A DNA stretch of 64,000 nucleotides from Nemertoderma westbladi. Taxonomy: Eukaryota > Animalia > Xenacoelomorpha. Location: NCBI GenBank assembly GCA_032718475.1, contig JAUCBJ010002550.1, positions 1 to 64,000 of the forward strand, read 5' to 3'. The notes beneath the pieces were generated by a model. The model saw nothing but the letters and a program-made list of their open reading frames with translations, had not been told where the DNA came from and did not search any database. Shown one piece after another: positions 6,864-41,967 of the stretch; the stretch's first letter is position 1, and every line of letters begins with the position of its first letter. Made by a program: the position numbers and the translations under genes.

Positions 6864-8621
6864 TACTAGTACTACTACTACTACTAGGATCGGCATGCTG
6901 CATTGCAGCTGCATTTTTAAAAATGCTGTGCCGGCTTGTCAACAAAATTGCACCGCCACAACTCCCTATCACCCATGACATTTGCTAGATCATCCGCATC
7001 TTTAAGGCCAGTGTCCTTTAAGATGCGTCTCAAGAAAGTCATGGGCTGTCCACCATGCTTATTCACTCCATGAGGCTGCCAAAGTACAAGATTATGCACT
7101 GGCTGGTCCTCACGGCGAAAGCAATGTCCTGCAAAGCGGAGGCGATTTTGTTCTAGTGTCAAGCTTGGGGGAACCAATGAGACACCTCCAATGTTATATA
7201 GTGTCTGGTTGGAGATGTGTGCATTGTACTTGACACAATGTACCCGGCGTAGCATTCTTGTGAATGTGCCATCCAGAGATTTGGTGTCCTCAGCAGTTAG
7301 AGCCCAGCATGGACTCCCGTAGAGGAGTACTGGAACTACTGCTGCTCTGAATAATCGGACCTTAAGTTTCCGATTAATTCTAGGTGACTTCCAAATCCTG
7401 GAAAGCCTATTCAAGGCTGCCCATGCCTTTCCCTTACGTATTCGAAGGTCCTCACCTGACTTCCGGATCCATGATCCCAGGTAACAGAAGTCGTCCACAT
7501 GCTCAAGCATACCATCCTTTGAGCTTATGCTCATCCGATCGGAGACTTGCTGAGGACTTTCAAAGTTAACTGTCAGAATTTTGGTCTTTCTGGAGTTAAT
7601 AAAAAGACCAACACTAGAAGCAGCATGTTCTAATGAGCTGAGGAGCCGCTGGGCTCCCTCTAATGATTCTGAGAGTACTCCTAAGTCATCAGCAAAGTCT
7701 AGATCAGTTAGGTACTTGGCAGGATTTCCTCGACTTCTGGAGCCAGTAGGTGGAGTTATCATCACCCCATCATCATTATGATGATCTAAGGACATGCGTA
7801 GAACATAGTCAACCACAATAATGAACAAGAATGGTGCAAGTGTGTCTCCTTGGAGGACGCCCCATAACACTTCAAATGGTTCTGTGTCACCATCAACAGT
7901 AGACACAAATGTTGTCGAACCATCGTATACTGATCTGATTGCTGCAATAATTTCATCAGGAATCCCATATAATGAAAGTATGCTGAACATACGTGAGCGA
8001 GAGACTGAATCAAAGGCCTTGAAGAAGTCAACAAAGATAACAGCCAGATGCCTGTCTTTCTTTTTTGATAACTCTTCAATTATCCTTCTAAGTGCCAAAA
8101 TGGGCTCCATGGTCCCACGACCTTTACGGAACCCATTCTGATTTCCACGTAGCAGTCTCTCAATGGGATCCCTGATGCGATTTAATAGAATTCTATTGTA
8201 TAGTTTTGCAGCAATCGAGATCAATGAGATTCCCCGAAAAGAACCATAGAGTGTTAGGTTGCCCTTCTTGGGAACTGGCACCAACTTATTTGTTTTCATT
8301 TCTTGTGGGACTCTTGTTGTACGGTACATGTCTACTATGATGGGATAGATGAGCTTTAAACACTCAGGTATTTTAAAGACCTCAGGGGGAACACCATCTA
8401 CTCCACTGGCACGATTGGTCTTAATGCTCTTTGCAGCAGCCTTCACTTCTGCAAAGGAGATATCGCCAATGGGAATATCTGGGAGTACAGACTCAGACAC
8501 TTTTACTTCTATAAAGTTATCAGGCAATACCCTGTCATTATTGAGGAGCTTTTCAAAGTGGGCTTTCCAACCATTGAGGCGATCGGCTGGTGATTCAGCC
8601 TTAACCTTGGTGGTTGGTTGG
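6864..8621 (-). mobile_element. 5'-truncated RTE-clade non-LTR retrotransposon inserted in the satellite
   Basis: RT ORF, short 3' UTR and (TAG)n tail at about 6864-6887. A 14-bp TSD CTATACTATAATAC lies at 6850-6863 and 8622-8635. Confidence 0.93.
6917..8620 (-). CDS. Reverse transcriptase of the RTE LINE (endonuclease domain lost to truncation)
   Basis: The frame stays open back to the truncation point (QPTTKV...WKAHFEKLLN). Motifs: FRGISL, NQNGFRKGR, FVDFFKAFDSV, GVLQGDTLAPFLF, DLDFADDL, FCYLGS, LLYGS..W, RLRFAGH. Confidence 0.93.
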   Translation of the reverse strand, partial: QPTTKVKAESPADRLNGWKAHFEKLLNNDRVLPDNFIEVKVSESVLPDIPIGDISFAEVKAAAKSIKTNRASGVDGVPPEVFKIPECLKLIYPIIVDMYRTTRVPQEMKTNKLVPVPKKGNLTLYGSFRGISLISIAAKLYNRILLNRIRDPIERLLRGNQNGFRKGRGTMEPILALRRIIEELSKKKDRHLAVIFVDFFKAFDSVSRSRMFSILSLYGIPDEIIAAIRSVYDGSTTFVSTVDGDTEPFEVLWGVLQGDTLAPFLFIIVVDYVLRMSLDHHNDDGVMITPPTGSRSRGNPAKYLTDLDFADDLGVLSESLEGAQRLLSSLEHAASSVGLFINSRKTKILTVNFESPQQVSDRMSISSKDGMLEHVDDFCYLGSWIRKSGEDLRIRKGKAWAALNRLSRIWKSPRINRKLKVRLFRAAVVPVLLYGSPCWALTAEDTKSLDGTFTRMLRRVHCVKYNAHISNQTLYNIGGVSLVPPSLTLEQNRLRFAGHCFRREDQPVHNLVLWQPHGVNKHGGQPMTFLRRILKDTGLKDADDLANVMGDRELWRCNFVDKPAQHF

Positions 8622-20600: not shown

Positions 20601-21504
20601 TACTATAATACATCCTGTAGTTACCACGTAGAGCCTATACTATACTATAATACATCCTGTAGTTACCACGTAGAGCCTATACTATACTATAATACATCCT
20701 GTAGTTACCACGTAGAGCCTATACTATACTATAATACATCCTGTAGTTACCACGTAGAGCCTATACTATACTATAATACATCCTGTAGTTACCACGTAGA
20801 GCCTATACTATAATACATCCTGTAGTTACCACGTAGAACGAACCTATACTATAATACATCCTGTAGTTACCACGTAGAACCTATACTATACTATAATACA
20901 TCCTGTAGTTACCACGTAGAGCCTATACTATACTATAATACATCCTGTAGTTACCACGTAGAGCCTATACTATAATACATCCTGTAGTTACCACGTAGAA
21001 CGAACCTGTACTATAATACATCCTGTAGTTACCACGTAGAGCCTATACTATACTATAATACATCCTGTAGTTACCACGTAGAGCCTATACTATACTATAA
21101 TACATCCTGTAGTTACCACGTAGAGCCTATACTATAATACATCCTGTAGTTACCACGTAGAACGAACCTATACTATAATACATCCTGTAGTTACCACGTA
21201 GAACCTATACTATACTATAATACATCCTGTAGTTACCACGTAGAGCCTATACTATACTATAATACATCCTGTAGTTACCACGTAGAGCCTATACTATAAT
21301 ACATCCTGTAGTTACCACGTAGAACGAACCTGTACTATAATACATCCTGTAGTTACCACGTAGAGCCTATACTATACTATAATACATCCTGTAGTTACCA
21401 CGTAGAGCCTATACTATACTATAATACATCCTGTAGTTACCACGTAGAGCCTATACTATAATACATCCTGTAGTTACCACGTAGAACCTATACTATACTA
21501 TAAT
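8622..21504. repeat. Satellite DNA, same family (main block)
   Basis: Same 31-bp core and linker set; the 42-bp GCCTATACTAT monomer predominates. Confidence 0.99.
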
Positions 21505-21630
21505 TATAGAATTATATTCCCTAAATGCCGTGGATTTTCAAAATTTTATTTTATTCGGATTAACTTTGTAAAGATTGCTTTGAGTTCTCATTCGTATTGG
21601 TTCTATCTATTATGCATCTATCGGTCAAGT

Positions 21631-21717
21631 GGTTCAGTAGCTCAGTCGGTAGAGCGTTGGAAATTATGTGTGTAGTAGGTATCGAGTTCGAATCCTAGTA
21701 AGTGCGAATTATTTTTT
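21631..21717 (+). ncRNA. tRNA-derived Pol III-type cassette inside the LTR (not a functional tRNA)
   Basis: A box/D-arm TAGCTCAGTCGGTAGAGC at 21638-21655, B box GAGTTCGAATCC at 21684-21695, T6 run at 21712-21717. Acceptor and anticodon stems do not pair. Confidence 0.7.
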
Positions 21718-21913
21718 GTGCAGAATTTCAACTCATTTAAATTAACCGCTACAAATTAATTGCATTTATCTGTACCAATGAGACTGTAGTTATTTGATTG
21801 TAACCAATGTCGTGCAAGTTATATATTAGCTGGACCAATAGCTATCTTTAAAACCTTGTTAGAACCTATAGAACAATCGAGAATTTTCTCGATTGATTGC
21901 AGCACAAATTTGG

Positions 21914-22038
21914 TATATAAAGGTGCGATTTCGTTCATTAGTTCACTACTCAATCACTTCAATATTCACATCATTATTCTGTCGTGCTTAGTTTATTCTC
22001 AGATTACATTGTATTATAATTGTATCTTCTGTAATAAA
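21914..22038 (+). promoter_or_regulatory. Putative LTR Pol II core promoter and poly(A) signal
   Basis: TATATAAA at 21914-21921 downstream of several CCAAT boxes (about 21775-21840). Initiator-like TTAGTT about 25 bp later, AATAAA at 22033-22038. Confidence 0.5.
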
Positions 22039-24218
22039 GTCAGAATATTCCCTCAGTTTTCTATCTGTTTTACTATGGTTTCACTACGGTGAACAAACTC
22101 AGGGACAGGATGGCCAGCTAGAGATCGGGCCGCAGCAATGAACGGGAACATCACGGGAATGTAGACGAGAGACAACCCGCAATACCTTTAGAGTTATTCG
22201 CCCATCGCCTGAAAGGTTAGACAGCGTTTGATCCTTGCTACCTAAGTGTAAGACCAAAAGATCAACAGGTAGAAGTAGTGACACGCTGTAAGCCCAAAAT
22301 TACATCATAGGGACTGTACTGTCTTGATTCAGGAAAACCCACAGTAGACCTTCACATTCCTACGGGGGGAGAGCGCAGGCAGATACTAGTACGCAGATAG
22401 GACGTAGGCACACCGGTACAAGGCATACACATTGGTTAGGGTGCAGCAAACTGTACGCTTAACTCTTGCTAAGTACAGGTGCGCGTGCGACTATTTGCAG
22501 TACGACAGTGTCCATTGCATTAGAACTTGTAGGCTAAGGGGGTTGCTGTGTTTTCACCTGAATTGGGATTGTACCGTTCAGGCGGTAGGGCAGTTTACAC
22601 TAGGCGCAAATAAATTGAGGCTATCAGGGATATACTAACATCTACCGTGTCCCCGCCAACGCCCTAATAGGAAGTTACCTGGACTACCTGGGTGACTAAA
22701 ATTCTAGATAGGAGCCAGGATAGCTATTAGTACCCGTACGCCTACAGTAGTAAACTAACACATCTCTTCTTAGTATCAGGGACCTGGTACCTAAAATTGC
22801 CGAATTCTGGGCGTAGTATTAACCTTATGCCTGAATTTGAGTCCTGGAAATACGCAAGAGGGGAAGGAACCTTATCATTCGTGAGTATTGGACCTACAAG
22901 TTACAAAATTAGAATATTCGTAAAATGCACACCGTACCCAGTAATTATATATGTGAAGGAGCAAAACTGTTTTGACCGTTCAGAATTAACACACGCGCGT
23001 TAGAAATTATTTACACCTCGAAATATATAAAATTAACTTAGTCCGTACTGTGCTTTGCCCGCTAGTTAGACATCTCCAAATCTCTGCCTGTACCTAGCTA
23101 GCGTCCCTTCGCCCAACCATATAAATCACACCGCGGCAAAGTATACGAGCCTCTTAGTCCGTCAGTGAGTCAGCCTGATTTTAGGATTCGCTGCGCGGGA
23201 TTTTGTTTTATCGAAGTTTGTCTGCTCGTAGACTGTTTTCTGCCTCACCGGTTATAAGAGATCGATACTGCAATATATTCGCTTACTTAGGGTTTACTGT
23301 TTTGGTGAGAAGGTCGGATTTATGATTTGATTTACAAACTTTACAGTAGGATATTGCAGGTATTGTTACCGTCTCTTCCGATAGTAGGAATAGGCGTATC
23401 TCTTCAATTAGTAGGAATGTGTTTTACTGAACTACGGTTCGGTAGGACTAAAGTTTTTTGAAAAATTTGTATTTTGAGGTAAAATTTTGTATTTGATTAG
23501 CTAAGTGCTAATTTTTTGAAATAAAATTTGATTTGAACCGCGTGTAAAATATTTTTGGAATTGAATACCGGTGTTTAAAAGGGTTTAAATACCATATTGT
23601 ACCGGTACAAAATTTTCGTAAAGTAAAACCTAACTCTTTTGTTTTTCAGGATTCAGAACTCATTTCTAGACTGTAACGGGAGCAAGACCGTGTTTAGCAA
23701 GTTTGGGAGATAGATAACTCAACAACTTTGGTTGGGAAAATCGCGTTTCGTCCGCAACGTTAAAAACGGAAAGGTTCACGTTCGGTTTGTATCTGGGAAT
23801 CTGTTTTTCTGGAGAATTATTGGAGTGGGTGAGTTCGAAAAGTTGCATAAATAAGTTAGGCATTACCGTATTAGTTAAAATTATTGTGGGTTCCACTGTC
23901 TCAAGTATTTATGCATTCCGTACGATTTCTTTGTTCATTGCTGAATTAGTCCGTATTATTGTATTTAATTTACCTTTTGATAACGCATATCGTTATCCGA
24001 TTTATTTGTTGTAAAATTGGCCGCTAGGCTAATTTTATTATATACTTATTCCGTGACATTTATTTGCTGTAAAATTGGCCGTTTAGGCTAATTTTATCCA
24101 TCTGCTATAAAATCGGCCGGTAGGCTAATTTTATAAGACTGTAATTAGTACCGTTTTGTATAAATACGGTAAAACTCGATACTTTGACACTCACTTTACT
24201 TGACTTACAACTACCGAA

Positions 24219-27200
24219 ATGAGTGACAAACAAGACTATACGAAGAACACACAAACCGACTATGACTCGTGTGACGGAGATAAGTCAGCAGCGGAAGAAC
24301 AACAGGGGAAGACTCGCGAGCCTACCGAACCTACACCGTGTGCGTCACCAGTACATCCAACGGGAGTACCGGATGCCGTAGTACGAGGCGACGGCAGGAC
24401 CGAGGACTTTCTAACTGTTCCGCAACCTAGATATAGGGAAACGGAAATGGTAAGTTCAGCAGGAAGCACAGAAAGTGTGGTTAGAAGCGTCGGTGGATAC
24501 ATGGCGCATATTACCAGGAGTATTGGAGAAGGCCAACGCATATTAGACGGGTTGACCGCTCCGATGTCTCGATTCGAGTTCTACACCCTCCAGGTTAGAG
24601 TACAGAGTAAAGTATATAAGTCCGTAGATAATCTAGTTGGCCTACAAGATCTAGCTAGACAGAGACAGGACATGGATACTCAACTTAGAATCCTCGAGAA
24701 ACTAATGATCACTAGAGAGAAACTGATTCAGTTTAAGTCGACGATTAGACAGATACAACAGGAACAAGCGGACCAGTTGTTAGGTGAGTCAGTTTCGGAC
24801 GAATTATTGCAACCCGAGGAAGAACAGGAACTGTACCGACTGGATGGACAATTGAAACATCTGACGGACCACTTACGTATGTGCGGCGAAGACGTCGGCG
24901 ATTTGGAAACCGTGCCGGAATATACGAAAGAAACTTCACCCGTACGAATTGAATCGGCACCGGGAATACTGGACCAATCGTTGGTAAGTATTCGTAGCGA
25001 AATCTGCGAGGGAAGTATAGTCACGTCAGAAGTTGCTCGACAACAGCAAGAATTCCACCGACAACGACAAGAAATGGAAGAACAAGCTCAACTTCTAGTG
25101 ATGCAAGCAGCAGTAGAGGAAGAGAAGCTACGCGTTGCGAATATAGCAAGAATCTCTCATCTACAGGAACAAGCTGAATTAGAAGCAGCTGAAGTAGAAA
25201 GGTTAGAGTTAGACATTGCCCGACAAGCGGCAGCGGCAGCGGCAGAGTCAGAGCGACAAGCGGCAGCGGCAGCGGCAGAGTCAGAGCGACAAGCGGCAGC
25301 GGCAGCGGCAGAGTCAGAGCGACAAGCGGCAGCGGCAGCGGCGGAATTAGAACGAGACAGGTTAGTTTCGGAGGCGCGGGCCGAAATGAAAACACGGCAA
25401 ATAAAGGCTCAATCCGCTATACGACAAGCGGAGTTTGAGGCGCAACGACAACAAACGGAACAACGAGAGAAGACAGCTAAACTTCATTTCGAACTTGAGA
25501 AGAAGGCGAGAGAATTAGCGAACGCTGAGGAAGATCTGGATCAAAGGGCCCGCGATCGTTCGATGAGATCTCGTGACGGACATGATTTGGACCAGTTAGA
25601 GGTAAGACATCGCCAAATTCAGGAACGGAAGAAGGAAGGAAGCGTAGGAGCACCCGGACGGGAACGACAATTAGTAAAGGACGTGTGTCAACGATTCCCA
25701 CAGGTAACTCATATGTTTGCACCGGTTACGACTAAGGAACCTGTTTCGATTGCGGGTAGTAGTGATATTTCTCCTATCCATGGTGCGACGGAACACAGGT
25801 TTGTTATTCCGGACGAGTTTATACCGCCAAGAGCAACGTCGTCGCCCATTCCGAAAGTCAAGGTAAGTAACCCACCGATTACGGATCGTAGTAGTTTATT
25901 AACCGGACCCGCACTACTGACGACAAAACAGGTGAGTCCACCTTTGACACCTAAACCCGTTACACATTACGCTTATCCAATGACGTTTCGACCTACAAGG
26001 CCAGTTGTTTCAAATGCTGTCATTCGCCCACCGAACCAGTTTACATCGCAATCTACGACTTCGAGGAAGACTTGTGAGCCTACCGAACAACGAAGAACAG
26101 TGGAGACGCGACCATTCAACCAGTTTACATCGCAATCTACGACTTCGAGGAAGACTTGTGAGCCTACCGAACAACGGAGATCAGTGGACGATGTTCCGAA
26201 ACGAACCGTTAGAATTCGTACGACGCAACGAACGCGAGCACGTCGACCACCATATCCAGATGATAGTAGTACTTCGAGCGAATCGGATTACCCGAAACGC
26301 GAGGTATTTAGAACAGGGGCGGCCGATGAATATAAACGCGAGCGTTCAGACAACTCTTTTGCAGACAATCCTCCACAGAATACACCGACACAGAAGGCGT
26401 TACCACCAGCGGGCGCGATCGGTGCACAACAGTTCGCCGACATTGTCAACAAGTTGGCCCGGATTGAGGAACGTCTGGAGGAAGGTTACACCGACAGTTC
26501 GAGAAATTCCGAATTCGAACACAATAGACACCCGAAGGGACCACAAAGACCAGTACCTTCAAACCCCACAAGCGATCAGGGAAAAGCGCCAAGAAGGGAG
26601 AACATCAACCAGACTACCAACCAAGGACGCGAAACTCTGAACGTTGCCGAGGAGATAGCGAAATTCGCAGCCAGACAAGGATTGCCGGTACAACAACCAC
26701 CGAAGTTTTCCGGTAGCTCAAAACACTGGCATACCTTCGTAGACTATATCGAATCCCAGATCGCCGTGTGCGCCTTTACATCACGGGAGAAGTTCAATTA
26801 CCTGCTCCAAACGTTGTCAGGAGAACCTAAACGTTTGGCGGAGACCTTCGTCGGTGTACCAGACGCTTTCGAACTAGCGTACGATCGTTTGACTTCGATA
26901 TACGGAGGTACAGTGAGTATGGCCAGGTCAGTAATAGAAGAACTCTGTAAGGGAGGGGCTATCACTAAACCCGTCGACTTACTAAAACTGGCTGACGAGA
27001 TTAAGAACGCTATCACTACCTTAAGATCAATTGGACAACTTGATTACGGGAATACCCCTACAGTTCTATTAAAGATAATAGGACGACTCCACCATCGACT
27101 CCGTCGGGAGTGGAGGAAGGTCGAATACCAGCGGGAGGAGCGGGGAGGATTCTTAAAATTAGAAGATGTGTACCTTTTAATATCCAGGGAGGCGGTAGTA

Positions 27201-29030
27201 GAAACTCGATCTAACTATACCGACCAGCACATCGTGGCAGAAGGGATCACACTGCCATCCTCCAACCGACAAAAACCCCAGACAACATCCACAAAGACGG
27301 CCACTTACGCCACACCGACGGAATCACGACAATTCTCAGACGGTAATAGAGTATCTGCGCCCATTGGGACGAAACAGACGAGACAGCAACTCAGCACCGA
27401 CTTCAACGGCTGCCAATACTGCGAACATCTAGGTAAGCGGTATATTGGTCACAAGTTACGAGGTTGTCGACAATTTCGCGAGTTGAACTCGGAAGAACGA
27501 CGGCTGCAGATACGGCCACTGGACTCTTGTTGGCGGTGTACGCGACACGGACACGTCCGTAAGGATTGCCCAAATACCGACACTTGTCCATCCTGTGGAC
27601 GCAACCACGACATTCTGCTCCACACAGACAGCCACACGCCGACGAAACGCTTCGCCAGGGAACACCCAGAAGCAGCAGCGAGATGTGATGCGGCTTACCG
27701 AAAACGAGAATCGAAAACGACTCCAACCTTCGTGACCCATATTGAGGATTGCTTCTCAGAACAATCCGGATCGTCGGACGAAGAATCAGAAGACGACGAT
27801 GTATATTCCAATGGAGACGAACAACCGTCGATCGCGCTTCTAACCACTGACCAACTGAAGGGATTCAGTGTAATCCCGATTAAGATCACTGGCACAAAAG
27901 GGAGTAAGAGGATTTACGCGATTCTAGACTCAGCCTCATCTCACAGTTACGTGGATGAAAAGATAGCTGACGTCGTAACGGATCTCAGACAAGGTAAACA
28001 CGTCAGTTATACAGTAAGTAGTATGCACGGCCAGCGTGCAATACCAGTGACACGAGTTAAGTTGGACTTAGACTCTCTTCTTCCAAAATCGCAACACAGC
28101 GAGAGGGAGAGGTCTTTGTTACCCTTTAGAGATCTAACCTTTGCGGCCACGAAGGACTTTAGTAACCTACTAGGTCCAGTGCCGGAACAATCTCTGGAGG
28201 ACCGTAAGTATTTCAGACACCTTGGTGTACCTGAATGTCCTGTCAATTATAGATCGGTAGCAATGCTGATCGGGACGGACCAATTCAACCTACATCAGGT
28301 GTGGGAAACCAGACCATCGGCAGTTGTAGCGGGAAACGCATACGCCTGCAGAACGCCGATAGGGTGGTATACTCGAGCGCCTGTGCGCACACTAGACGTA
28401 AGTGACGAGGAAGACGATGTACAGAGTACATGTAGTTTATTAACTACAAATTCAATTCATTCCTTTTCACACGACGTGAACCATACTACACTACAGTCGA
28501 CAAAACACGACAGACGTGTAACTAGTATGATAAGTCACAAGGAGCAGCTAACCCACAAGGTGAGTTTAGAACTTGGGGAGAAGACGAGTCAGCTGGAGAT
28601 TCCATCGACGACAGATGATAGGCTTGCGAGTCTACCTACCCCAATAACCTCAACAGTGCCCGTCGATATCGATGATGACGCGTTGAGAAATCATCAGTTG
28701 GAACAAGCCGCCTTGGACAAAGAATTAACGGAGAAGACTATCAGGTGGTTAGAACAAGATACAGCTGAACCTGGTAGCTACGAACCTTGTATGTCGGAAC
28801 AGGAGAAACAATCTCTGAAGATCATGGAAGATACTATCCGCCAGACGAAAGACGGACATTATGAGGTAGGGATGTTATGGCGTAGCCAAAGTCCTAAACT
28901 TATAAACAACTATCCACTGGCTTTAAGACGTCTACACTCAATCCGACAACGTCTATTAAAAGACGAGAAAGCCCATCTGCAGTACAACACTCAGATGGAG
29001 ACGTATTTGACGAAGGGATACGCTATCTGA
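24219..29030 (+). CDS. BEL-1 Gag-protease polyprotein (ends at an in-frame TGA just before RT)
   Basis: Coiled-coil N-terminus and BEL gag core (PPKFSGSSKHW...EKFNYL). Three BEL-type Cys/His fingers (CQYC..H..C, CWRCTRHGHVRKDC, CPSCGRNHDILLH), protease ILDSAS, pre-RT motif YEVGMLW...NNYPLALRRL. Confidence 0.93.
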   Translation: MSDKQDYTKNTQTDYDSCDGDKSAAEEQQGKTREPTEPTPCASPVHPTGVPDAVVRGDGRTEDFLTVPQPRYRETEMVSSAGSTESVVRSVGGYMAHITRSIGEGQRILDGLTAPMSRFEFYTLQVRVQSKVYKSVDNLVGLQDLARQRQDMDTQLRILEKLMITREKLIQFKSTIRQIQQEQADQLLGESVSDELLQPEEEQELYRLDGQLKHLTDHLRMCGEDVGDLETVPEYTKETSPVRIESAPGILDQSLVSIRSEICEGSIVTSEVARQQQEFHRQRQEMEEQAQLLVMQAAVEEEKLRVANIARISHLQEQAELEAAEVERLELDIARQAAAAAAESERQAAAAAAESERQAAAAAAESERQAAAAAAELERDRLVSEARAEMKTRQIKAQSAIRQAEFEAQRQQTEQREKTAKLHFELEKKARELANAEEDLDQRARDRSMRSRDGHDLDQLEVRHRQIQERKKEGSVGAPGRERQLVKDVCQRFPQVTHMFAPVTTKEPVSIAGSSDISPIHGATEHRFVIPDEFIPPRATSSPIPKVKVSNPPITDRSSLLTGPALLTTKQVSPPLTPKPVTHYAYPMTFRPTRPVVSNAVIRPPNQFTSQSTTSRKTCEPTEQRRTVETRPFNQFTSQSTTSRKTCEPTEQRRSVDDVPKRTVRIRTTQRTRARRPPYPDDSSTSSESDYPKREVFRTGAADEYKRERSDNSFADNPPQNTPTQKALPPAGAIGAQQFADIVNKLARIEERLEEGYTDSSRNSEFEHNRHPKGPQRPVPSNPTSDQGKAPRRENINQTTNQGRETLNVAEEIAKFAARQGLPVQQPPKFSGSSKHWHTFVDYIESQIAVCAFTSREKFNYLLQTLSGEPKRLAETFVGVPDAFELAYDRLTSIYGGTVSMARSVIEELCKGGAITKPVDLLKLADEIKNAITTLRSIGQLDYGNTPTVLLKIIGRLHHRLRREWRKVEYQREERGGFLKLEDVYLLISREAVVETRSNYTDQHIVAEGITLPSSNRQKPQTTSTKTATYATPTESRQFSDGNRVSAPIGTKQTRQQLSTDFNGCQYCEHLGKRYIGHKLRGCRQFRELNSEERRLQIRPLDSCWRCTRHGHVRKDCPNTDTCPSCGRNHDILLHTDSHTPTKRFAREHPEAAARCDAAYRKRESKTTPTFVTHIEDCFSEQSGSSDEESEDDDVYSNGDEQPSIALLTTDQLKGFSVIPIKITGTKGSKRIYAILDSASSHSYVDEKIADVVTDLRQGKHVSYTVSSMHGQRAIPVTRVKLDLDSLLPKSQHSERERSLLPFRDLTFAATKDFSNLLGPVPEQSLEDRKYFRHLGVPECPVNYRSVAMLIGTDQFNLHQVWETRPSAVVAGNAYACRTPIGWYTRAPVRTLDVSDEEDDVQSTCSLLTTNSIHSFSHDVNHTTLQSTKHDRRVTSMISHKEQLTHKVSLELGEKTSQLEIPSTTDDRLASLPTPITSTVPVDIDDDALRNHQLEQAALDKELTEKTIRWLEQDTAEPGSYEPCMSEQEKQSLKIMEDTIRQTKDGHYEVGMLWRSQSPKLINNYPLALRRLHSIRQRLLKDEKAHLQYNTQMETYLTKGYAI

Positions 29031-32000
29031 ATGACTAACCCGGAGCGAGTGACCGACCAAACGTATTACTTGCCACATCACTACGTGAGACACCCCGACA
29101 AACCAGACAAAGTACGTGTAGTCAATGACTGTGCGGCTCTGTTTGAGGGAATGTCCCTCAATAGTGAGTTGATGGATGGACCGAACATGAATAATTATCT
29201 TATGGGGGTGATTATGCGCTTCCGTCAGCGTCAAGTAGCCTTTACTTGCGACGTTGAAGCGATGTTTCACCAAGTAAAAGCGTTAGAGCGAGACAGAGAC
29301 AGTTTGCGGTTCCTCTGGTATCCGGAAGGAGATTTAAGTCTACCACCGGCGACTTACCAAATGCAAGTTCGCGTTTTCGGTGCCAGAGACAGCCCAAATT
29401 GTACGATGTACGCCCTAAAGCAGGCCGCTAGGGATCAGAAACATCTATATGACCCAGAGATAATTAGAATTGTGGAGCGTGACTTTTACGTTGATGACGG
29501 ATTACAGAGTTGCGACACAGTAGAACGTGCTACAACAGTAGCACATCAATTACGGGACTGCTTGGCGGGCGGAGGTTTTAACCTCACCAAATTCGCCTCA
29601 AACAGTGCCGAATTAGTAGACTCATTCGGAACTACTGAGCGTGGAGGTGGTGACATAGACCTAGAGTTCGAACCACTACCGACGACCAAGGTGTTGGGGC
29701 TCTTTTGGGACCCAAACACAGACAACTTTCGAGTGAAGGTGAGACTGGACAGTCAAGGGAACACACTGACAAAGAGATCATGCTTGTCAAAGTTGAGCCG
29801 ATTGTTCGATCCGTTAGGATTCATCAGTCCAGTGATACTGCAAGCCCGCATTTATATGCGCAGTATATGGAAGGATGGACTAACTTGGGACGAGCCGATC
29901 TCATCAGACCAAGTGGACTTATGGAAGACCTGGGAGGCGGAATTATCTTCGCTAGAGGATTATTCCATACCCAGGGTTTACTTTCCATTGCAAAGTACAT
30001 TTCCTGACAACTTGGAACTACACTGTTTTTCTGACGCCAGTGACAACGGTTTTGGTGTGGCAGCGTACCTGCGCAGACAAGTAGAATCAGACGAGTTCGA
30101 TGTTTCGCTCATTACTTCTAAGGCTAAGACCATGCCTACTAAGTATATGACGACACCACGAGCCGAGCTACAAGCCGCAACCCTGTCAACCACCATCGTG
30201 AACCTCATACAGACAGAACTACAGTCGAGTTTACAGATATTTTATTGGACTGACGCGACGTTGGTTTTATTTTACATAAACAACGACACACTCGAATTCA
30301 AGACATTCGTTGCTAACCGTCGCGCGGAAATTCTAGACCGTTCAATAAAAGGGGATTGGCGACATTGTCCCGGACCACAAAACCCAGCTGATATTGCGTC
30401 GCGAGGAATGATGCCTGAGGAATTCTGTAAACCGGAGAACAAAGAGTTTTGGCAACACGGACCCCAGTTCTTGCAGAAATCGACACAAGATTGGCCTCCG
30501 TTATACGACAACAAGTCCAACACTATTCCCAAGGACGCCGAAATCAAGAAACCAAAAAAGGGGAAGACAAAGAAAAAGACGACGGCGGCGAAACTCAAGA
30601 AAAAACCGAAGGCGAAATGGAAAGATATAACTTCAAAGGTCAAGAGAGGAAGACTTGCGAGCCTTTCTACACCAGACATATCGCCAGACGGTCAACCAGA
30701 CACGTTACCAGACGGTCAACCAGACACGTTACTAGACAGCCAACCAGACATTTTGCCAGACATATCACAAAATGTTCCACCAGACGCTAGTAACACACTG
30801 ACAAACAGTAAAGCCGCAGTTTCCCTATTGGAGCGGCCTTCTATTGACAAACAACCAGATACGTTACTAGACGTATCGCCAGACACATTACTAGACAGTC
30901 GACTAGACACTAGTAATGTATTGACTAACAATAAAGCCGCAGTTTCCCTATTGGAGCGGCCTTGTATTGACAAACTACCAATTTTGACACACTTGAGCAA
31001 CCATAAGCACGGTGAAACCTCATGTATTACAGATGTGGGTAGTACCTACGCTAATGTAAATACAGGTGTTACTTTGCGCTCAAGAGACATACCGAACTTG
31101 CAACCTATGTTGAAACCTGGGATTAATGTCGGCAGGAAAATAAGTTTACCGAAACCTGCTGACCCCATAGAGTTCAAACCACCATTAACGATCGACTTAC
31201 AAAGTACCGACAATCAAGGTAAGAAGACAAAGAAGGACAAATTACTTGTAGACCCCGACGGATCAACAGTCAACAAGGGAATACTTACCGGCGGACCCGT
31301 GGGCCCTTCTAGTAATTCAAAACCTTCCAAGTTCTCCATTGACTTACCTGATGACGTCACAAATACTTACGTCGACCGTATCGTAAACTTAACAGACTCT
31401 TGGTCAAACGCTTGCCGAAAATTAGCGTGGATTGTACGTTTTGTACAATACGTTAAAGGCAAACGTGACTTTACACGTCGACTTACATTGGCTGAGATTG
31501 ACAGGTGTGAGATTAAATTAATTCGCCATTACCAACTGCGATATTTCGCGCGCGAATTCACATCTATAAATCAAGGTCAACCAATCAAGTCACCGATACT
31601 GAGTTGGAGTCCGATTATTTATAATGGCTTGATTTGTCATAAATCTCGGCTTCAAAACATTGACTTTAACACAAACTTTAGGTACCCAATAATAATACCG
31701 CAACATCACGAACTACAACGTGCAATGATACTGGACGCACATTTACATCTGAAACACGCTGGAAGACACCACTGTCTTTCCTACTTACGTACTAGATTTG
31801 TATTAATTAGACCCAGTAAAGCATTAAGTTCAGTGACACGTACGTGTATTATTTGTAAAAAGGTACATTCTAGAATAGGTACCCAAGAAATGAGTGAACT
31901 ACCACAAGCACGACTTCAAGCATTCAGACCACCTTTTACAGAGACTGGAATTGATTGCTTTGGTCCCATACATACGAAACGTGGACGTATACTAGTAAAA

Positions 32001-32384
32001 CGCTGGGGACTGATTTTCACATGTATGTCCAGTAGGGCAGTTCACATTGAACGTGTGATGGATCTTTCCACCAACGCGTTTATACTAGCACTGCGGCGAT
32101 TTATCGCTAGACGCGGACTAGTAAAATGCTTGTACTCAGACCAAGGGACAAACTTTGTTGGTGCTCGGAATGAGATTGCTAGAGCCTTTAAGAAATTAGA
32201 TCATGATCAAATCTCGAACGAACTGCAACCTCACAAGATTGTTTGGAAGTTCAATCCTCCAGATAGTCCTTGGAGAGGCGGAGTCTGGGAGAGACTGATT
32301 AGATCTATCAAAGACAGCAATGGCAAAGGTCATTCCAGTAAACCACATATTAACAGACGACCAACTGACAACATTGTTTGTTGA
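29031..32384 (+). CDS. BEL-1 RT-RNase H-integrase (same frame as gag, frameshifted near 32310)
   Basis: YYLPHH, KVRVVND, SLNSELMDGP, DVEAMFHQV, FYVDD, FDPLG, HCFSDAS, TPRAELQAA, WTDA, NPADIASRG. Integrase HHCC, GIDCFGP, SDQGTNFVGA, GGVWERLIRSIK. Confidence 0.94.
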   Translation: MTNPERVTDQTYYLPHHYVRHPDKPDKVRVVNDCAALFEGMSLNSELMDGPNMNNYLMGVIMRFRQRQVAFTCDVEAMFHQVKALERDRDSLRFLWYPEGDLSLPPATYQMQVRVFGARDSPNCTMYALKQAARDQKHLYDPEIIRIVERDFYVDDGLQSCDTVERATTVAHQLRDCLAGGGFNLTKFASNSAELVDSFGTTERGGGDIDLEFEPLPTTKVLGLFWDPNTDNFRVKVRLDSQGNTLTKRSCLSKLSRLFDPLGFISPVILQARIYMRSIWKDGLTWDEPISSDQVDLWKTWEAELSSLEDYSIPRVYFPLQSTFPDNLELHCFSDASDNGFGVAAYLRRQVESDEFDVSLITSKAKTMPTKYMTTPRAELQAATLSTTIVNLIQTELQSSLQIFYWTDATLVLFYINNDTLEFKTFVANRRAEILDRSIKGDWRHCPGPQNPADIASRGMMPEEFCKPENKEFWQHGPQFLQKSTQDWPPLYDNKSNTIPKDAEIKKPKKGKTKKKTTAAKLKKKPKAKWKDITSKVKRGRLASLSTPDISPDGQPDTLPDGQPDTLLDSQPDILPDISQNVPPDASNTLTNSKAAVSLLERPSIDKQPDTLLDVSPDTLLDSRLDTSNVLTNNKAAVSLLERPCIDKLPILTHLSNHKHGETSCITDVGSTYANVNTGVTLRSRDIPNLQPMLKPGINVGRKISLPKPADPIEFKPPLTIDLQSTDNQGKKTKKDKLLVDPDGSTVNKGILTGGPVGPSSNSKPSKFSIDLPDDVTNTYVDRIVNLTDSWSNACRKLAWIVRFVQYVKGKRDFTRRLTLAEIDRCEIKLIRHYQLRYFAREFTSINQGQPIKSPILSWSPIIYNGLICHKSRLQNIDFNTNFRYPIIIPQHHELQRAMILDAHLHLKHAGRHHCLSYLRTRFVLIRPSKALSSVTRTCIICKKVHSRIGTQEMSELPQARLQAFRPPFTETGIDCFGPIHTKRGRILVKRWGLIFTCMSSRAVHIERVMDLSTNAFILALRRFIARRGLVKCLYSDQGTNFVGARNEIARAFKKLDHDQISNELQPHKIVWKFNPPDSPWRGGVWERLIRSIKDSNGKGHSSKPHINRRPTDNIVC

Positions 32385-32877
32385 AATCGAGGCAATACTA
32401 AATACTAGACCAATAGTATTAGTACCCGATGACAAACAATCTCAGTTTGCTTTAACACCAGCACACCTGCTTATGCAGGCACCGACCACATTGACGCCGA
32501 TTTCCACTCCAATGGAAAGCGATAGCTACGGTAGAAAAGCGTGGAAAATCACGCAACTACTAGCTAACAAATTCTGGGAAATATGGCAAAACCATTATTT
32601 GCCCTCTATTTCTGCCAGAACAAACTGGTACAATAACACCCGCGCATTAAAGCCGGGAGATCACGTGCTGTTGGCAGAAGTGAATCTAAAAAGACGCTTC
32701 TGGATAACAGGTGTCATTTTAGCCACACATCCATCTATGGATGGAGTGACAAGAACTGTGACGGTACGGACAATTGACGGTCGTACAGTAGACAGACCGA
32801 CTCAACGTCTCGTACTTCTTGAAGAGACTCGTAACGAGTCTGGAGACTACAAATCTCCACCTAATACTAGTAAATAA
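32320..32877 (+). CDS. BEL-1 integrase C-terminal part (after the frameshift)
   Basis: EIEAILNTRP, LTPAHLL, FWEIWQNHYL, W..GVI....PSMDGVTRTV.VRT: the typical BEL integrase C-terminus. Confidence 0.92.
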   Translation: MAKVIPVNHILTDDQLTTLFVEIEAILNTRPIVLVPDDKQSQFALTPAHLLMQAPTTLTPISTPMESDSYGRKAWKITQLLANKFWEIWQNHYLPSISARTNWYNNTRALKPGDHVLLAEVNLKRRFWITGVILATHPSMDGVTRTVTVRTIDGRTVDRPTQRLVLLEETRNESGDYKSPPNTSK

Positions 32878-33538
32878 TTAGGAGTTTACAAATAGATTTC
32901 CACGTACCTGTACACCGTAGTAAGGACAGCGGTAGAATTCCATTGTCTTTATATGTGAACATTGAGGGTAGTACCCTTATGTGTCACATAGGAGCGGGAT
33001 TTGTAGGTATAAGAAATGGAATTCTACTTGGAACTCACAATATTGAGACATTTTCGAAATTTTAGACAATCCATTTGGATTTGAAAAAATTTTAAAATTT
33101 TCTCCAGTGAATAGATTTCAGGGTACAGTCGGGTGGAACTTAAAATTAGAGAAACAAGAGGAAGACTTGCGAGCCTTTCTTAAAATTTAATTAAAATTTT
33201 ACACGGTCTTGTTTCAATAAGTTACATCAAATAAATAGACTCCCCTATATTTATTACTAATTCTTGACTGCTTATTTTCTGATAATAGTTTGGGATCAAA
33301 AAGTGAGTATTTTAGACTCACAGCCAGTTTAGCCCAAATTCGTTTTTATTTCGGCAAAAAATTTTAGATAAGAAGCAGCGTGTCATTAAAGAAACCCTAG
33401 ATCTTAGGCTATGGGTAGGAGGTTAGAGCGTTGTCGAAGCCCAAAAGGCAGACGAAACTCTCACGTCTCCTCACAACTAACCACAAACTCTGTTGTATTC
33501 CCTCTAGTAGTAATGATTATGTAACTACACCTCTAATT

Positions 33539-35241
33539 ATGGAGAAAGGGATACAAAGAGAGCCGAGATGGGGATATGATATCCAAGAGGAGGCGGCAGC
33601 TTCATTCGAACGATTTGGAGCAAAAGACTACACTATATTTGGTATAAAGGAATTATCAGAAAGTACAGCGAAGCTCGCAAAGACAGCAATGCCTTTACTC
33701 GAGCAGGATTTAGTATATTTCGAGACGTGTATCTTCGCTGTGCGGGATCTCTTATCGAAAGACCATCTATGTTTACATTGTTACCCTATGAAGGAGAACG
33801 TATCGTGGAGATTACGGATGAATCACGGCAGACGCGTGCGCCTATCGGTCACCTTGGTGATGAATTCGAAGTAACTACTACGATCGCCGACGATCCTTTA
33901 GAGGAACTTCTTGAGATTGAAAGGAACCTCCCGAAGAAATCTCAGACGGAGATTCGACAACTTGAAGCAACAGATGCTATAGTTTGTATACAACCTTCAG
34001 AAACCTACCAACCCATAGACCCAGATGATTACGATTATAGTATGGGAGGAAGCGCTCGACCGATTGGAGATTTTATATACGAACGAGTGTGGTACCCTGC
34101 CAATACGATGTGTAGTAAATGTGGCGTCGCTGGACATCATATGACAAAGTGCAGTGGAAAGCACATTACTACGACTCAGCTAATCTGTGGATGGTGTGGG
34201 GATCAAGGGTCTCATACCTTTTATACTTGCTGGAGATTTATGGCTCAATGTACTTACTGCAATATAAAGGGACATCGAGCATCTGAATGCCAACTGAGAG
34301 ACATACCTTATGAACACGAATCTGTAAAACTCGTGAGGAAGTTATTTGATGAGTGGGAAGATTTAGCCGACGAACATGTATCGGCACAGAGAAGACGGTT
34401 TCCGATGAGAGCGCATCTCGGATTTTGGGCGGTAAATCCCCAGACGATGATGTCGGAAGGATACATCTCCGCTATGCCTCAATATGACGAACTTATCGAG
34501 GTTGTCGATATTTTGCCCCACGACAGCGGATTCCGAGTGGTGCGCGAGTATCTGTTACAAATTCACCCGGATAACAAAAACACGTGGAATTTTCAGAAAG
34601 TCGTTAATCGGATTACGTATGGTGAATTCGATCGTTTCCGAACTGAAAGGCGGAACAAGGGAGCTTGGTTAACCGTCGCATGGGCGTACCGAGCCGCGTT
34701 TTACCACAAACGTATACGAGCGAGCGTATTCGAGGAAGAAGAGGTCCTAGAGGCGACGAACATATCAGCCACTCCGGTTGCGCCGTCTGCACGTCACCCT
34801 CGGGAGGACGGGCAGGGTAGGATCATACGGGTCCAGAAAGTGGGCCAACAATTGAAGAAAATTATTAATGTAGAAGAACGCAAGGGAGTTGAGCCGACCA
34901 TTCGAGTTACTCGGGATACGGTATCACTTCCAAGAGAACCAGTAGGAGGATCGGGACATACACCAGCTGATCAACAGGGGGCGCAAGCTACTCTCGGGTC
35001 TGCGTCGTCCGCTTCTCACGCGTTCCCAGACGTTCTACCAACTGTAGTGACGACTGATCGGTCACGAGGAATTGGTCGAGGTTTTGGGATGCCAAATAGA
35101 CGAATTTGCGAGGAAATAGTCGCACCGTCTCTCAACGTCCCAAGTAAACCAGTGACTCGCCCCACGAGTCCCATATCGCGAGCAAAGTCACCTGTGCGCA
35201 GTTTTCGAGGACGCGGCAGGGCTCGATCAACTAAACGATAA
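33539..35241 (+). CDS. BEL-1 ORF3: triple CCHC zinc-knuckle protein with an Arg/Pro-rich tail (probable frameshift near 33727)
   Basis: CSKCGVAGHHMTKC, CGWCGDQGSHTFYTC, CTYCNIKGHRASEC; ends RGRGRARSTKR. The ATG at 33539 joins the 33727 frame if 2 nt are removed at GAGACGTGTAT. Confidence 0.75.
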
Positions 35242-36145
35242 AAGGGAGGGCAAGGGTGGACGGAAGACTCGTGAGCCTTTCTTATGATTTGTGATTTATT
35301 TGAATTATATGTTTTATATTTAGAAAGTTTGTATTCTGAAAGGGACTCATATTTAGTAAAAACTTATATTTTATATTTGTGCTTATTCCAAACTTATGCA
35401 ATTTGTATTGTTCCGAATTTATGAAATTTAGAAAGTTTAGAAGGAACTTATATTTGAAAGATTTATGTTTCATATTTGAGATGCAAAGGTTTATATTATT
35501 CTAAACTTATGCAGTTTATATCTATATTTAGTAAGACTACCCAAAAGAGAGTTTATATTTGTAAGAATTTATATTTATATTTGTAATTATTTCGAACTTA
35601 TACAATTTATATTATTCCAAACTTATGCAATTTGTATTGTTCCGAATATTATGCAATTTATATTTTATAAGCAGTATTTGTACCTAAAGAGAAAGTTTTA
35701 TAGACAGAAAATTTTGTGCTCAGAAAGACTCATATTTGTAATTATTCCAAACTTATGCAATCTACATTTAGGTACGAAAGTATTTGTAATTACTTGAATT
35801 TATGCAATATTTGGGATGCAATAGTAGATGGAAGACTCGCGAGCCTTTCTTATTGTTTTCATTTATTTGTATTTGTAATTGTTTGAATTTATGCAATATC
35901 TGAGATGCAATAGATTTATATTGGTGAATTTAATTTAGATTTATATTGTACTTACTTAGCAAAGCCTTAAATACGTAAAGTTTGAATTTGTAATTATTTT
36001 GTATCGAATCATTACGTAGAAAGGAAGTATTGTTTGAAATTTAATTGTAAATATGTAAGTACGCCCTAAGTATTTTATAGTTTGATTGATTATTGGTGAA
36101 AACCGTATATTTTATGCACGATAATATCCTGTTTTCATGGAGCGG

Positions 36146-36286
36146 TATAGAATTATATTCCCTAAATGCCGTGGATTTTCAAAATTTTATTTTATTCGGA
36201 TTAACTTTGTAAAGATTGCTTTGAGTTCTCATTCGTATTGGTTCTATCTATTATGCATCTATCGGTCAAGTGGTTCAGTAGCTCAG
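36146..36286 (+). repeat. 3' LTR of BEL-1, part 1
   Basis: Matches 21505-21645; preceded by a short purine-rich GGAGCGG (weak PPT). Confidence 0.92.
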
Positions 36287-37500
36287 CCCAAAAACAGTTG
36301 GCCTCGAGGTGCGTCCTAGGTGCGTCCTAGGCTAAGCTGAGGTCCGTCCTAGGCAGAGGGCTAAGGTACGTCCCAGGCAGAGACAAGTTTGATTGGTTGT
36401 TCCACTTGCTAGCTAGGGAATTCCTTCTTGAATCCGTCATAGTAAGCGAGGCCTGTGATTGGCTAATTCAGAATTAATGTGCTGTTTGTTATTGTAAATT
36501 TTCTGGATGCCGAGAATGGATTGTAAAGTAGTATTAATTAAGAATTAATTCAAATGTAACTAAATATTACGTTACGGAAAAAATTTACAAAAAATATGTG
36601 AATGCTCCATTTTATATTTTTTATTTGTATTCTTGTTTAAATCAAACAAACAGGTAAATAATGAGTTGTGCGGTGTAGTGTAAATTATCATTGTTTGGTT
36701 GTGTGGCAACTGGAGTAGCAGGCTGGGTATTTGGGTAGCCCCAGTTGTGCGGGCCTGGACAGGGTTTCCATCCAATGCTAACATGTATTGCAACTGTATA
36801 ATGTTTAGAATGCCAGTGAAACAAAATAGGAGGGTCCTTAGTAGTCAACTGGAGTGGCAGCCAATATCGTAAATATTCATTCCAGAACATGTATTTATTT
36901 AACATGGGTTATATGCAGTTCATTAGTTGCACAGAAAAGGAGACACATAGTATGTTGAAGGTGGAGTTGATTCTATTGGTTGTCTGACTCGACGGCTGGG
37001 ATATCCCAGTGAGCGTATACAATAGCAGGGCTTCCCTCTAATAATGGTATCACAATGCTACTATAGTATATTATTTTTCATGGCTTGCGTTTATGTGCCT
37101 ATTAATCAGTAGTATTTAGTATTGTAACTGTAACAACTGTGTTGTTAATAATATTTCTTATAATTGTATATATTTGCTGCTACCTGTAATACATTTTACA
37201 ACTTTAATTATTTAATTAATTAGTTAACCTAATTTTAACTTATTAATTGGATATTCCTGTTTTGATTTCTACATAAAATAACCGTATATAAATTGCAGGT
37301 TTAGTTACATTTTAATTTTATAGTTTCGGTTTGTAATTTTTCACTTTGTCATACAAACTTAAATTTGTAAAAAAAGCTCTGTAAGTTAAATACAGTAATT
37401 TTAAAAAATAAGCAATGCATAACACAGATACACAAACAGGGGGGGGGGGGGGGGGGGCAGTGGAAAAGTGTACCCGGGCCGCTATGTCCTAAATTAGAGA

Positions 37501-37575
37501 TCAAGATGCCATGAAGCAAGTTATTTTGCTATTACGACTCCTAATAGCAAAATAACTTGCTTCATGGCATCTTGA
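37501..37575. repeat. Perfect 34-bp inverted repeat with a 7-nt spacer
   Basis: TCAAGATGCCATGAAGCAAGTTATTTTGCTATTA (37501-37534) and its exact reverse complement (37542-37575). Confidence 0.95.
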
Positions 37576-37816
37576 CGCAGTGGATAGCTGCCTTGTATTG
37601 TACATAGCCAACCAGTCTCTCTCTCTATCTGGGTAAACCAAGCACATACTGTAGACTCCATTATGTGGTTTACTTGTGCTAGTAGTAGATGCCACCAGGT
37701 CAAGGCTTGGTTATTGGCCTTATTGGTCAAGGCCTGCTTTACTCTGTATACATTTGACTTATCACAGCAGACTCAGAAATTAGTCATCAATGTAACATAA
37801 ATGATATTATATTCAG

Positions 37817-39034
37817 GGTGTTCGGACACTTCCCCCCCGGACACTTCCCCCCCGGACAGTTCCCCCCCCCGCTCAAGTAGGACACTTCCCCCCCGGACAC
37901 TTCCCCCCCGGACAGTTCCCCCCCGCTCAAGTAGGACACTTCCCCCCCGGACACTTCCCCCCCAGACACTTCCCCTCCCCCCCGCGGACACTTCCCCCCC
38001 GACTGTTCTTAACTTCGCACATTCGTATTTTTCATTTTGTAAGGTAAACGGACCGCTTGTATCCAGATAAGTTGTATCCAATTTTCCTTACGTAGCTCAG
38101 ATAGTGATCTTTTGCATCCTGATTTTACATTTTATATCCAAGTTTTATTTATGGGTTTTATCAATGCAATTACATAGTATTGTTTGCTAATCTTTAAACG
38201 ATTAATTATATTAGATGACCTATAAATTCCATCCACCGAATGATATACTGTTTTTATTAACTATAGAATTATAATAATTAATTGTTTTAATTATAGGTAT
38301 TATTATGTAATAGTCTTCTTCAAATTGTAGCAGATGGGGATGAATATTATTGTTGCAATCAAAATTATACCTCTCTAGGGTAAAATCGACATGCGTCGAC
38401 CTGTATTCTGTGTTCAGCATTACATACAGTATTAATATACATATTACTACTATACATACTATATAGATATTATACACACTACATATTAAATTTCCTGGTT
38501 ACTTGCGATATTTTTAATAGGATTTTGTTGAATTATATAATATTGTAGTAATTTATATATTAAATTGGTTAACATTCAATACAGCTCCTACTTTAGGCTT
38601 AGTCAATTTATTATCTGATGATACAAACATGAATTAGTTATTTCAAAGTGGTCTTAAGTCTTTCACCACGGGCACTCAGCGAAATACCGGGTTATGGGGG
38701 CGATAACCCCCAAGAAATGAAGCGGGGGGGTTTGGGGGCGGCAGCCCCCAAGAAAAGAAGCGGGGGTTTGGGGGCGGCAGCCCCCAACAAAAGAAGCGGG
38801 GGTTTGGGGGCGGCAGCCCCCAATTAAAAGAAATTAAAAGAATTAAAGGAATTAAAAGAGAAACAAACAAAATTTGACTATAAAAATGTTTCTTTTATAA
38901 TTTTGAAAAAACTTGTCTAGATACAACTTGTCCTGTAACCATCTTTAACTTTTGTTTATTGCTTTGATGCACCCAGATTAATTTTAACACTTTAACTGGG
39001 GGGGAAGTGTCCGGGGGGCAAGTGTCCTAGATCC
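37817..39034. mobile_element. Non-autonomous Mutator-like (MULE) element with repeat-built TIRs
   Basis: 9-bp TSD TATATTCAG at 37808-37816 and 39035-39043. Ends GGTGTTCGGACACTT... and ...AAGTGTCCTAGATCC. Tandem GGACACTTCCCCCCC units at the left end, inverted copies at the right end. Confidence 0.75.
38695..38822. repeat. Four tandem GC-rich hairpin units (about 37 bp)
   Basis: TTGGGGGCGGCAGCCCCCAA three times plus one variant, separated by AAGAAGCGGGGGT. Confidence 0.85.
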
Positions 39035-40059
39035 TATATTCAGTTATCTGGTCTTTTGTGGTATTCCACTGTCATTTAATAGCTACTTATTGGTCTTTAA
39101 ACAATGTCGAAGTCTCACCATTTTAAAGGATTGAAGTTTTACCGCGACAAGTTCATAGCACTTGCTAACAGCCCGAGTGGGAGTAGAAATCTGTACGTAA
39201 CTTTACAGCGTTTGATAACATAACTTTACAGTGTTTGAACCCATAACTTCTCAGTTTTTGATCCCATAACTTTAGGCCTAAAGTACCGTTTATCATTTAT
39301 TATATTACAATTTTACCGATGTACAATTTTACCGTAATGTAAATAGTTTTTATTATATTACAATATAATAATATTCTGTATTTTAGAAAAGACCTACGAT
39401 TTTATAATAGCTCAATTTATTATAATAGCTAATATGATTTCAATATAATGGTATGTATAACGGTATACCTCTTTTTGTGCCATTTTGGTACATTGTTTTA
39501 ATTACATAAACGTTTCACTGCAGTTCATTTGTGTAATGAGTAATGATTTATTTAATCAATAAATATTTATCTACTAATTATTAAAAGCAAAGAAATATGT
39601 AATATTCAAATTTATATTTTCCCTTAATTTCAAACCCTCTTTTTTATTTTCCTTCCCTTTCGTCTTTATTATCTTTTTTAACGCAACATGTGGGCGTGGG
39701 GTGGGCCTTCGCGCCGCACAAGAGTGAGTTAGTAAGCCTAGATAACAATATATTTAGCACCACCTAGTGGCGGGCCAAGGAAATTGTGCGACGCCAGAAA
39801 CTGCCTCATTTATTTGAGACCAAAGATTAGACCGACTGACGACAGACCGTCAGACAATCAGACAGACCTACACGAGGTTGAGATAGTGATACTTGTAAAC
39901 TAAGATCTCTAACTTTCTTGACTTTTTCTTTCCCTACCCTTCTTTTGCTTTTCTCCTTTCCTTTCTTTTCCCCTTTTCTCTTGCCCCTCTTTTTCCTCCT
40001 TTGTTATAATTTTTTCTTCCCCCCTCCGATCAGGCTATCTTACCCCAGCCCTAGCTCAG

Positions 40060-41824: not shown

Positions 41825-41967
41825 ATAATACACCCTGTAGTTACCACGTAGAACCTATACTATACTATAATACATCCTGTAGTTACCACGTAGAGCCTAT
41901 ACTATACTATAATACATCCTGTAGTTACCACGTAGAGCCTATACTATAATACATCCTGTAGTTACCA
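41825..41967. repeat. Last ~3.5 monomers of the satellite (array boundary)
   Basis: Same core resumes after the TSD and ends at ...GTTACCA (41967). Confidence 0.95.

Follow-up and report, generated by a model that had tools for sequence, protein, structure and literature searches.

A BEL/Pao retrotransposon group that likely uses part of its own RNA as the primer of reverse transcription

A group of BEL/Pao retrotransposons is likely to start copying its RNA with a piece of that same RNA, and the element described here, found in a 64-kb stretch of DNA that we analysed as a whole (the window), likely works like Tf1 without belonging to the Tf1 group. The sequence GTAGGAATGTG at 23411-23421 (all features of this element are on the plus strand) starts on the first base past the 5′ long terminal repeat (LTR) and contains no TGG, and its exact reverse complement lies within the LTR at 22353-22363. 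The 3′ LTR carries the same complement at 40767-40777, and neither 11-mer was found at further positions in the window. Because there is no TGG after the LTR, the 3′ end of a mature tRNA cannot fit this candidate primer-binding site. ARAGORN called no tRNA gene in the window, and a search of Rfam with 21400-24300 gave a single chance-level match and neither a ribozyme nor a tRNA. The initial annotation of this DNA had pointed out the two 11-mers and put a chance match at about 1 in 2000; the coordinates were confirmed and the estimate holds. Self-complements of at least 11 nt occur at 6 of 12,689 internal positions of the element and at 13 of 19,200 positions outside it, so that the chance at a fixed site is about 5e-4, rising to 0.2% if offsets of 0-5 nt are allowed and to 1.1% for matches of at least 10 nt.

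Self-priming has been shown for Tf1, in which RNase H cuts between bases 11 and 12 (PMC7175516), and predicted for Tf1/sushi elements, Tcn1 and TAR (PMC6317226, PMC4600332, PMC10085805, PMC5341516, PMC5445492, PMC5443660). Our element has the Tf1-like arrangement, that is, an LTR complement of at least 10 nt located 0-5 nt past the 5′ LTR and no tRNA site, with 11 nt at offset 0. It resembles Tf1, Tf2, Tj1 and the Tf1/sushi group in lacking a tRNA site and in having an 11-nt post-LTR site that pairs with the LTR (PMC7175516, PMC10085805). The threshold of 10 nt at 0-5 nt is that of PMC6317226, in which self-priming is predicted for the plant TAR (Ty1/copia) and Tcn1 lineages; they belong to another superfamily and another host kingdom, and no intron-split or deeply internal primers are described for them in the available part of PMC6317226.

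The proteins, in contrast, are those of BEL/Pao elements. A gag-protease frame (24219-29030) with DUF1759, a CCHC motif and an LDSA-type protease motif ends in an in-frame TGA where the reverse transcriptase begins; it is followed by the reverse transcriptase, RNase H (PF05380) and integrase core with intact catalytic D/E residues (29031-32384) and, in a different frame, by the C-terminal part of the integrase (DUF5641, 32299-32877). The Pfam matches comprise DUF1759, the Pao RNase H family, the integrase zinc domain and DUF5641 (PF03564, PF05380, PF17921, PF18701), and the gag-PR-RT-RH-IN order, together with the BEL-type Gag, RNase H and integrase tail, identifies a BEL/Pao element, as do its two LTRs and short target duplication. 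The best 120 relatives listed share these domains at 36-44% identity, and the named hosts among them are echinoderms, molluscs, cnidarians, barnacles, amphioxus and fish. Although the copy in the window is damaged by the stop at 29028-29030 and by the frame change in the integrase, the catalytic D, E, D and D of RNase H are kept in all 24 aligned rows. Unlike the Tf1 group, the element has no chromodomain match in its proteins, and membership of the Ty3/gypsy chromoviruses (Tf1/sushi group) is thus not indicated. The ICTV profile describes Belpaoviridae as primed by host tRNA at a complementary site of 18 nt; it gives LTR lengths of 0.2-1.2 kb and genome sizes of 4.2-10 kb, and it calls their replication poorly understood (PMC8742986). 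Our element agrees with this profile in its DUF1759 Gag, protease-RT-RNase H-integrase order, PF05380, PF18701, LTRs and 5-bp target duplication; it differs in having no tRNA site, 1.9-kb TA...TA LTRs, an additional ORF with CCHC knuckles and a length of about 16.6 kb, not counting an insertion of 3,765 bp. For the polypurine tract of about 10 nt in the profile, the element offers only a weak candidate, a purine-rich run at 36136-36145, directly before the 3′ LTR. The extra coding region (33539-35241), which is reached through two splices, is made up of two overlapping frames and encodes three CCHC knuckles. It has no match to any envelope family, and a search of 1.84 billion representatives brought up no close relative of it; its three weak matches are all to CCHC knuckles.

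The element is housed in a 37/42-bp satellite array (1-21500 and 41825-41967), which also contains an RT-coding insert at about 6900-8600. The sequence ATAAT is present at both ends of the element (21500-21504 and 41825-41829), and removing the element restores a satellite unit; the LTR termini are therefore TA...TA. The 5′ LTR, as defined by self-BLAST and boundary checks, spans 21505-23410 (1,906 bp), and the 3′ LTR spans 36146-41824. The latter is split by the 3,765-bp insertion (36287-40051), which is flanked by an 8-bp duplication inside an A-box-like motif and in which no ORF of 150 aa and no terminal inverted repeat was found. The insertion aside, the two LTRs differ at four sites, three of them at most 32 bp from the right junction of the insertion. 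The element is young and high-copy. A tRNA-like sequence with an A-box and a B-box, spotted by eye at 21630-21705 within the first 200 bp of the LTR, was called by neither ARAGORN nor Rfam.

Could the real LTR be shorter? The segment 21505-22075 resembles a complete short LTR, with a TATA box, an AATAAA and a TA end followed by TGG (the TA/TGG site at 22076-22094), so that a tRNA might prime at 22076 and the 1.9-kb repeat might be an accident of this copy. It is the long repeat, however, whose ends carry the target duplication, and the T-loop-like GAAC lies about 5 nt nearer the TGG than it does in the 3′ end of a tRNA. Among the public runs listed, 6 of 11 contain the stretch, and we compared contigs, not reads, of four of them (X1, X3, X4 and X5). 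Contigs of X1 and X3 span the entire long LTR with no lasting drop past 22075, and in X5 the depth is about 6 over the LTR as against about 3 inside the element, summed contig depth being a weak measure. This coverage fits a long LTR throughout the family, and in one diverged copy the 89 nt before the binding site are replaced and the sequence resumes at 23410. Among the rows listed (20 of 299 and 12 of 149), none was a loose end at an LTR boundary. We consider priming at 22076 very improbable; it would gain if run X4, discussed below, were DNA, since spliced copies without both 11-mers would then have been reverse transcribed.

The initial annotation had proposed covariation among related elements as a check. 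A metagenome scan confirmed 550 stretches, of which the best 80 were kept; 26 of these 80 have distant direct repeats, and 13 of the 26 were judged readable at both LTR 3′ ends. A self-complement of 10-13 nt at offsets 0-5 is present in 10 of the 13 readable loci, with different letters. It is contiguous (10-12 nt) in L001, L043, L048 and L049, and in L007, L012, L017, L019, L037 and L052 a GTAAG..AG intron of the LTR has to be bridged for it to reach 10-13 nt. Because L037 and L052 represent one family, 9 of 12 families carry the signature. The two loci with a TGG site (L029 and L068) have no self-complement, and the remaining locus (L051) was assigned to neither class. Ten further loci have self-complements of 11-15 nt but weigh less, because their LTR ends were partly inferred from the match. 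In L015, the 11-nt complement shrinks to 5 and 9 nt when the LTR window omits its acceptor. Tested against the LTRs of other families, the binding sites found a complement of at least 10 nt in only 8 of 542 cross pairs, and in the related families L043/L049 and L063/L032 each site complements its own LTR only. Across families, then, the pairing is kept with other letters. The site in the window fits the profile of its relatives at offset 0 only, a score equalled by 1.4-1.9% of internal positions; offset 0 is also found in L037/L052, and 15 of 18 relatives share the GT start of the binding site. An AATAAA-type signal follows the primer in most relatives, 8-282 nt downstream.

ARAGORN called no tRNA genes in the 20 of the 80 relative loci that were scanned, and in 19 relatives no TATA box was found at a constant spacing upstream of the primer. 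Searches of metagenome, viral and prokaryote contigs with family-specific patterns gave no match, and protein scans of viral contigs yielded no loci. L001 and L019 have TG...TA LTRs, which shows that the family in the window is not alone in its TA right end. A second BEL/Pao element, at 47420-52312 on the minus strand, has identical 327-bp TG...CA LTRs and no integrase part; its binding site resembles those of L029 and L061, without their TGG start.

These data bear on the possibility that a host RNA (a tRNA half, an internal tRNA fragment or another small RNA) primes at 23411 and that the match in the LTR is due to chance or forms a helix for packaging or splice control. Position 23419, a G in the window, reads A in 65% (X1), 71% (X3) and 69% (X4) of the contig depth. 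Its partner at 22355 keeps C in the single long X4 contig across it. An A at 23419 without compensation at 22355 leaves a duplex of 8 bp plus a mismatch, and an 8-nt match is expected at 3.4% of positions. In addition, examples of half-tRNA priming exist among Copia lineages (PMC6317226), and the long branch of the element (see below) leaves room for an independent history. Against a host RNA stand the absence of a TGG for a mature tRNA 3′ end, the fit of the site to the clade profile and the binding sites of the relatives, which vary by family and each pair with their own LTR: one host RNA cannot account for family-specific sites of this kind. We therefore regard such a primer as rather unlikely. 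The G at 23419 is probably the newer letter, as a tandem duplicate of the binding site likewise has A at the matching position. Through this duplication (23372-23418; 27 nt, 17 of 20 alike), the LTR contains another primer site, of 8 nt, at 23384. In the roughly 100 nt surrounding the LTR end (23346-23447) there are four copies of the motif GTAGGA.

How might the two 11-mers come together in the RNA? Folding predicts a junction in which the 11-bp primer helix, a loop of 2 × 5 nt and a second 11-bp helix, formed by a purine-rich strand at 22366-22376 and the sequence 23394-23405, give a total of -31.7 kcal/mol. Of 600 internal windows matched for GC content, one reaches this energy, and of 300 shuffled LTRs none does; with A at 23419 and no compensating change at 22355 it weakens to -25.5 kcal/mol (p 0.04-0.065). 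RNAduplex predicts a possible 7-bp extension between 22342-22348 and 23423-23429, and a hairpin is predicted right after the binding site (23421-23448). In the Tf1 group, too, a second helix pairs what follows the primer with what precedes the binding site (PMC7175516, PMC10085805). When compared with the Tf1 pretzel, two helices are predicted here and the third is not in the Tf1 arrangement in the modelled fold, which varies with the assumed 5′ end. The second helix is not general in the relatives (best p 0.05, L012).

The predicted duplex depends strongly on where the RNA starts. Its probability is 1.0 for a fold from 22353 and 0.99 from 22330, and at most 0.03 for folds from 21945, 22000, 22100, 22216 and 22300, because a local hairpin in which 22520-22550 pairs with 22340-22373 then wins and is predicted to mask the primer. 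The two leader folds are a few kcal/mol apart, and folding thus leaves the question undecided. The initial annotation had cautioned that, given the TATA box at 21914, the 11-mer would lie about 400 nt inside the transcript and that polyadenylation would be needed beyond it. The TATA box (21914-21921, with a predicted start near 21945) is present, as is a second AATAAA at 22609-22614, 245 nt past the primer; a first AATAAA (22033-22038) lies upstream of it. The caution itself is well founded, because the X4 splice joint from 22215 requires an RNA start upstream.

In run X4, and in X4 alone, one contig with a depth of 250 joins 22213 to 23648 and so indicates a GT..AG intron at 22216-23649 that contains both 11-mers. 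A second GT..AG intron (23829-33507), leading to the extra ORF, is indicated by a loose end behind 23828 that fits 33508 onward in 29 of 30 letters; a loose end behind 22215 had no match within the 64-kb window. X4 is listed as 'DNA?', and none of the runs that contain the stretch is recorded as RNA; we read X4 as RNA, because deeper runs do not have these splice joints. If X4 is RNA, spliced RNAs start upstream of the primer, upstream of 22188, in agreement with the TATA box at 21914. Another X4 contig, over 22540-23240 (701 nt, depth 37), has 95 differing sites, many of them A>G, and represents either edited RNA or a diverged copy. A splice-built primer was also sought in the family of the window, and the best candidates, of 8-9 nt, were at chance level.

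A true Tf1 geometry would require a further transcription start at 22353 or close to it, with the 11-mer as the 5′ end of the genomic RNA. Such a start, downstream of the donor at 22215, would spare the binding site from splicing and would allow the duplex to form with the near-certain probabilities given above, and S. pombe Tf2 has alternative starts of which just one includes the self-primer (PMC5341516). We nevertheless consider it unlikely: there is no TATA-like site in the 70 nt upstream of 22353, the X4 contig is continuous over 22296-22481, though read-through of the 3′ LTR is a possible source of it, and the intron-split relatives would require a first exon of 4-7 nt. The upstream exon of these relatives supplies only 4-7 nt of the primer, and a 5′-tailed primer is plausible for this reason.

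We think it rather probable that the element primes itself in one of these two ways, either from a start near 22353 or by an internal cut. The best explanation, which we hold with even confidence, is that the LTR sequence 22353-22363 serves as the primer after unspliced RNA has been cut just 3′ of it. In this model, the genomic RNA would begin near 21945 and remain unspliced, and would fold the candidate primer onto 23411-23421. By analogy with Tf1, the RNase H of the element would probably cut after C22363, the predicted 3′ end of the primer, which would still carry a tail of some 410 nt at its 5′ end. The minus-strand strong-stop DNA would measure about 1,047 nt. Because the template begins at 22364 after the cut, strand transfer would need either RNA of the 3′ LTR that extends beyond 22364, through the first AATAAA and as far as the second, or a switch to a second packaged RNA. 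Splicing of 22216-23649 would delete the primer and its binding site together, and spliced RNAs would then act as mRNAs only; the X4 joint, which shows use of the 22215 donor, counts in favour of an internal primer. Compared with Tf1, the primer would lie about 410 nt behind the TATA-predicted start, within an intron, and many BEL/Pao relatives would differ further in assembling the primer by splicing. Counted against the internal primer are the majority A at 23419 together with the X4 contig that keeps C at 22355, the upstream folds that mask the primer, the stronger-looking poly(A) signal upstream of it and the limited spread of the second helix, as well as the long branch of the element and the exception of L027, described next.

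The initial annotation had suggested that tRNA-independent priming evolved in this element on its own. Independence from tRNA has gained support from the pairing in the relatives and from the second helix; an origin of its own has lost ground. In a phylogenetic tree, the rows with a TGG site form their own branch (100/98), in which L058 was counted as a TGG row without its site being seen, and the element of the window lies on the opposite side on a long branch; the trees were built without named BEL/Pao reference elements (Sinbad, Suzu, Dan, Tas and others). With L058 omitted, AU tests rejected the grouping of the element with each single TGG-site subgroup (p 0.025, 0.019 and 0.007), and its placement as sister to all five TGG-site rows was not rejected (p 0.44; p 0.20 in another test). 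L027, whose LTR is incomplete, has a TGG-starting site of uncertain type near the LTR end (1-100) yet groups with the self-complement relatives. Judging from these sequences, the trait extends across a broad clade of BEL/Pao elements and was probably not invented by this family. Shared ancestry is the simpler reading of its spread; given its long branch, the element of the window may instead have acquired the trait independently. We further propose, at somewhat less than even confidence, that a large BEL/Pao clade of aquatic animals swapped tRNA priming for 5′-tailed internal self-primers, which would be the third origin of self-priming among LTR elements, with host splicing as its control. 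Under this proposal, splicing would build the primer in many families and remove both primer and site in the family of the window, and the choice of splicing would sort transcripts into mRNAs and genomes.

We found no report of self-priming in BEL/Pao elements in the literature searched, which largely excluded subscription journals, Repbase Reports and supplements, and the same literature yielded neither a self-priming 'Ronin' group nor a C. elegans Cer7 element with a tRNA-like primer of its own. The main texts of a BEL/Pao survey (PMC3118150) and of the Sinbad paper (PMC554778) do not contain the terms PBS or tRNA. The predictions made here are base-exact and readable from raw sequencing data. 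If they are true, the Tf1 mechanism would reach a third LTR superfamily, the primer would not need to equal the 5′ end of the RNA, and priming would be tied to splicing. Self-priming would also account for BEL elements in which annotation by tRNA complementarity finds no binding site, and it may have removed the target site of host 3′ tRNA fragments from these elements.
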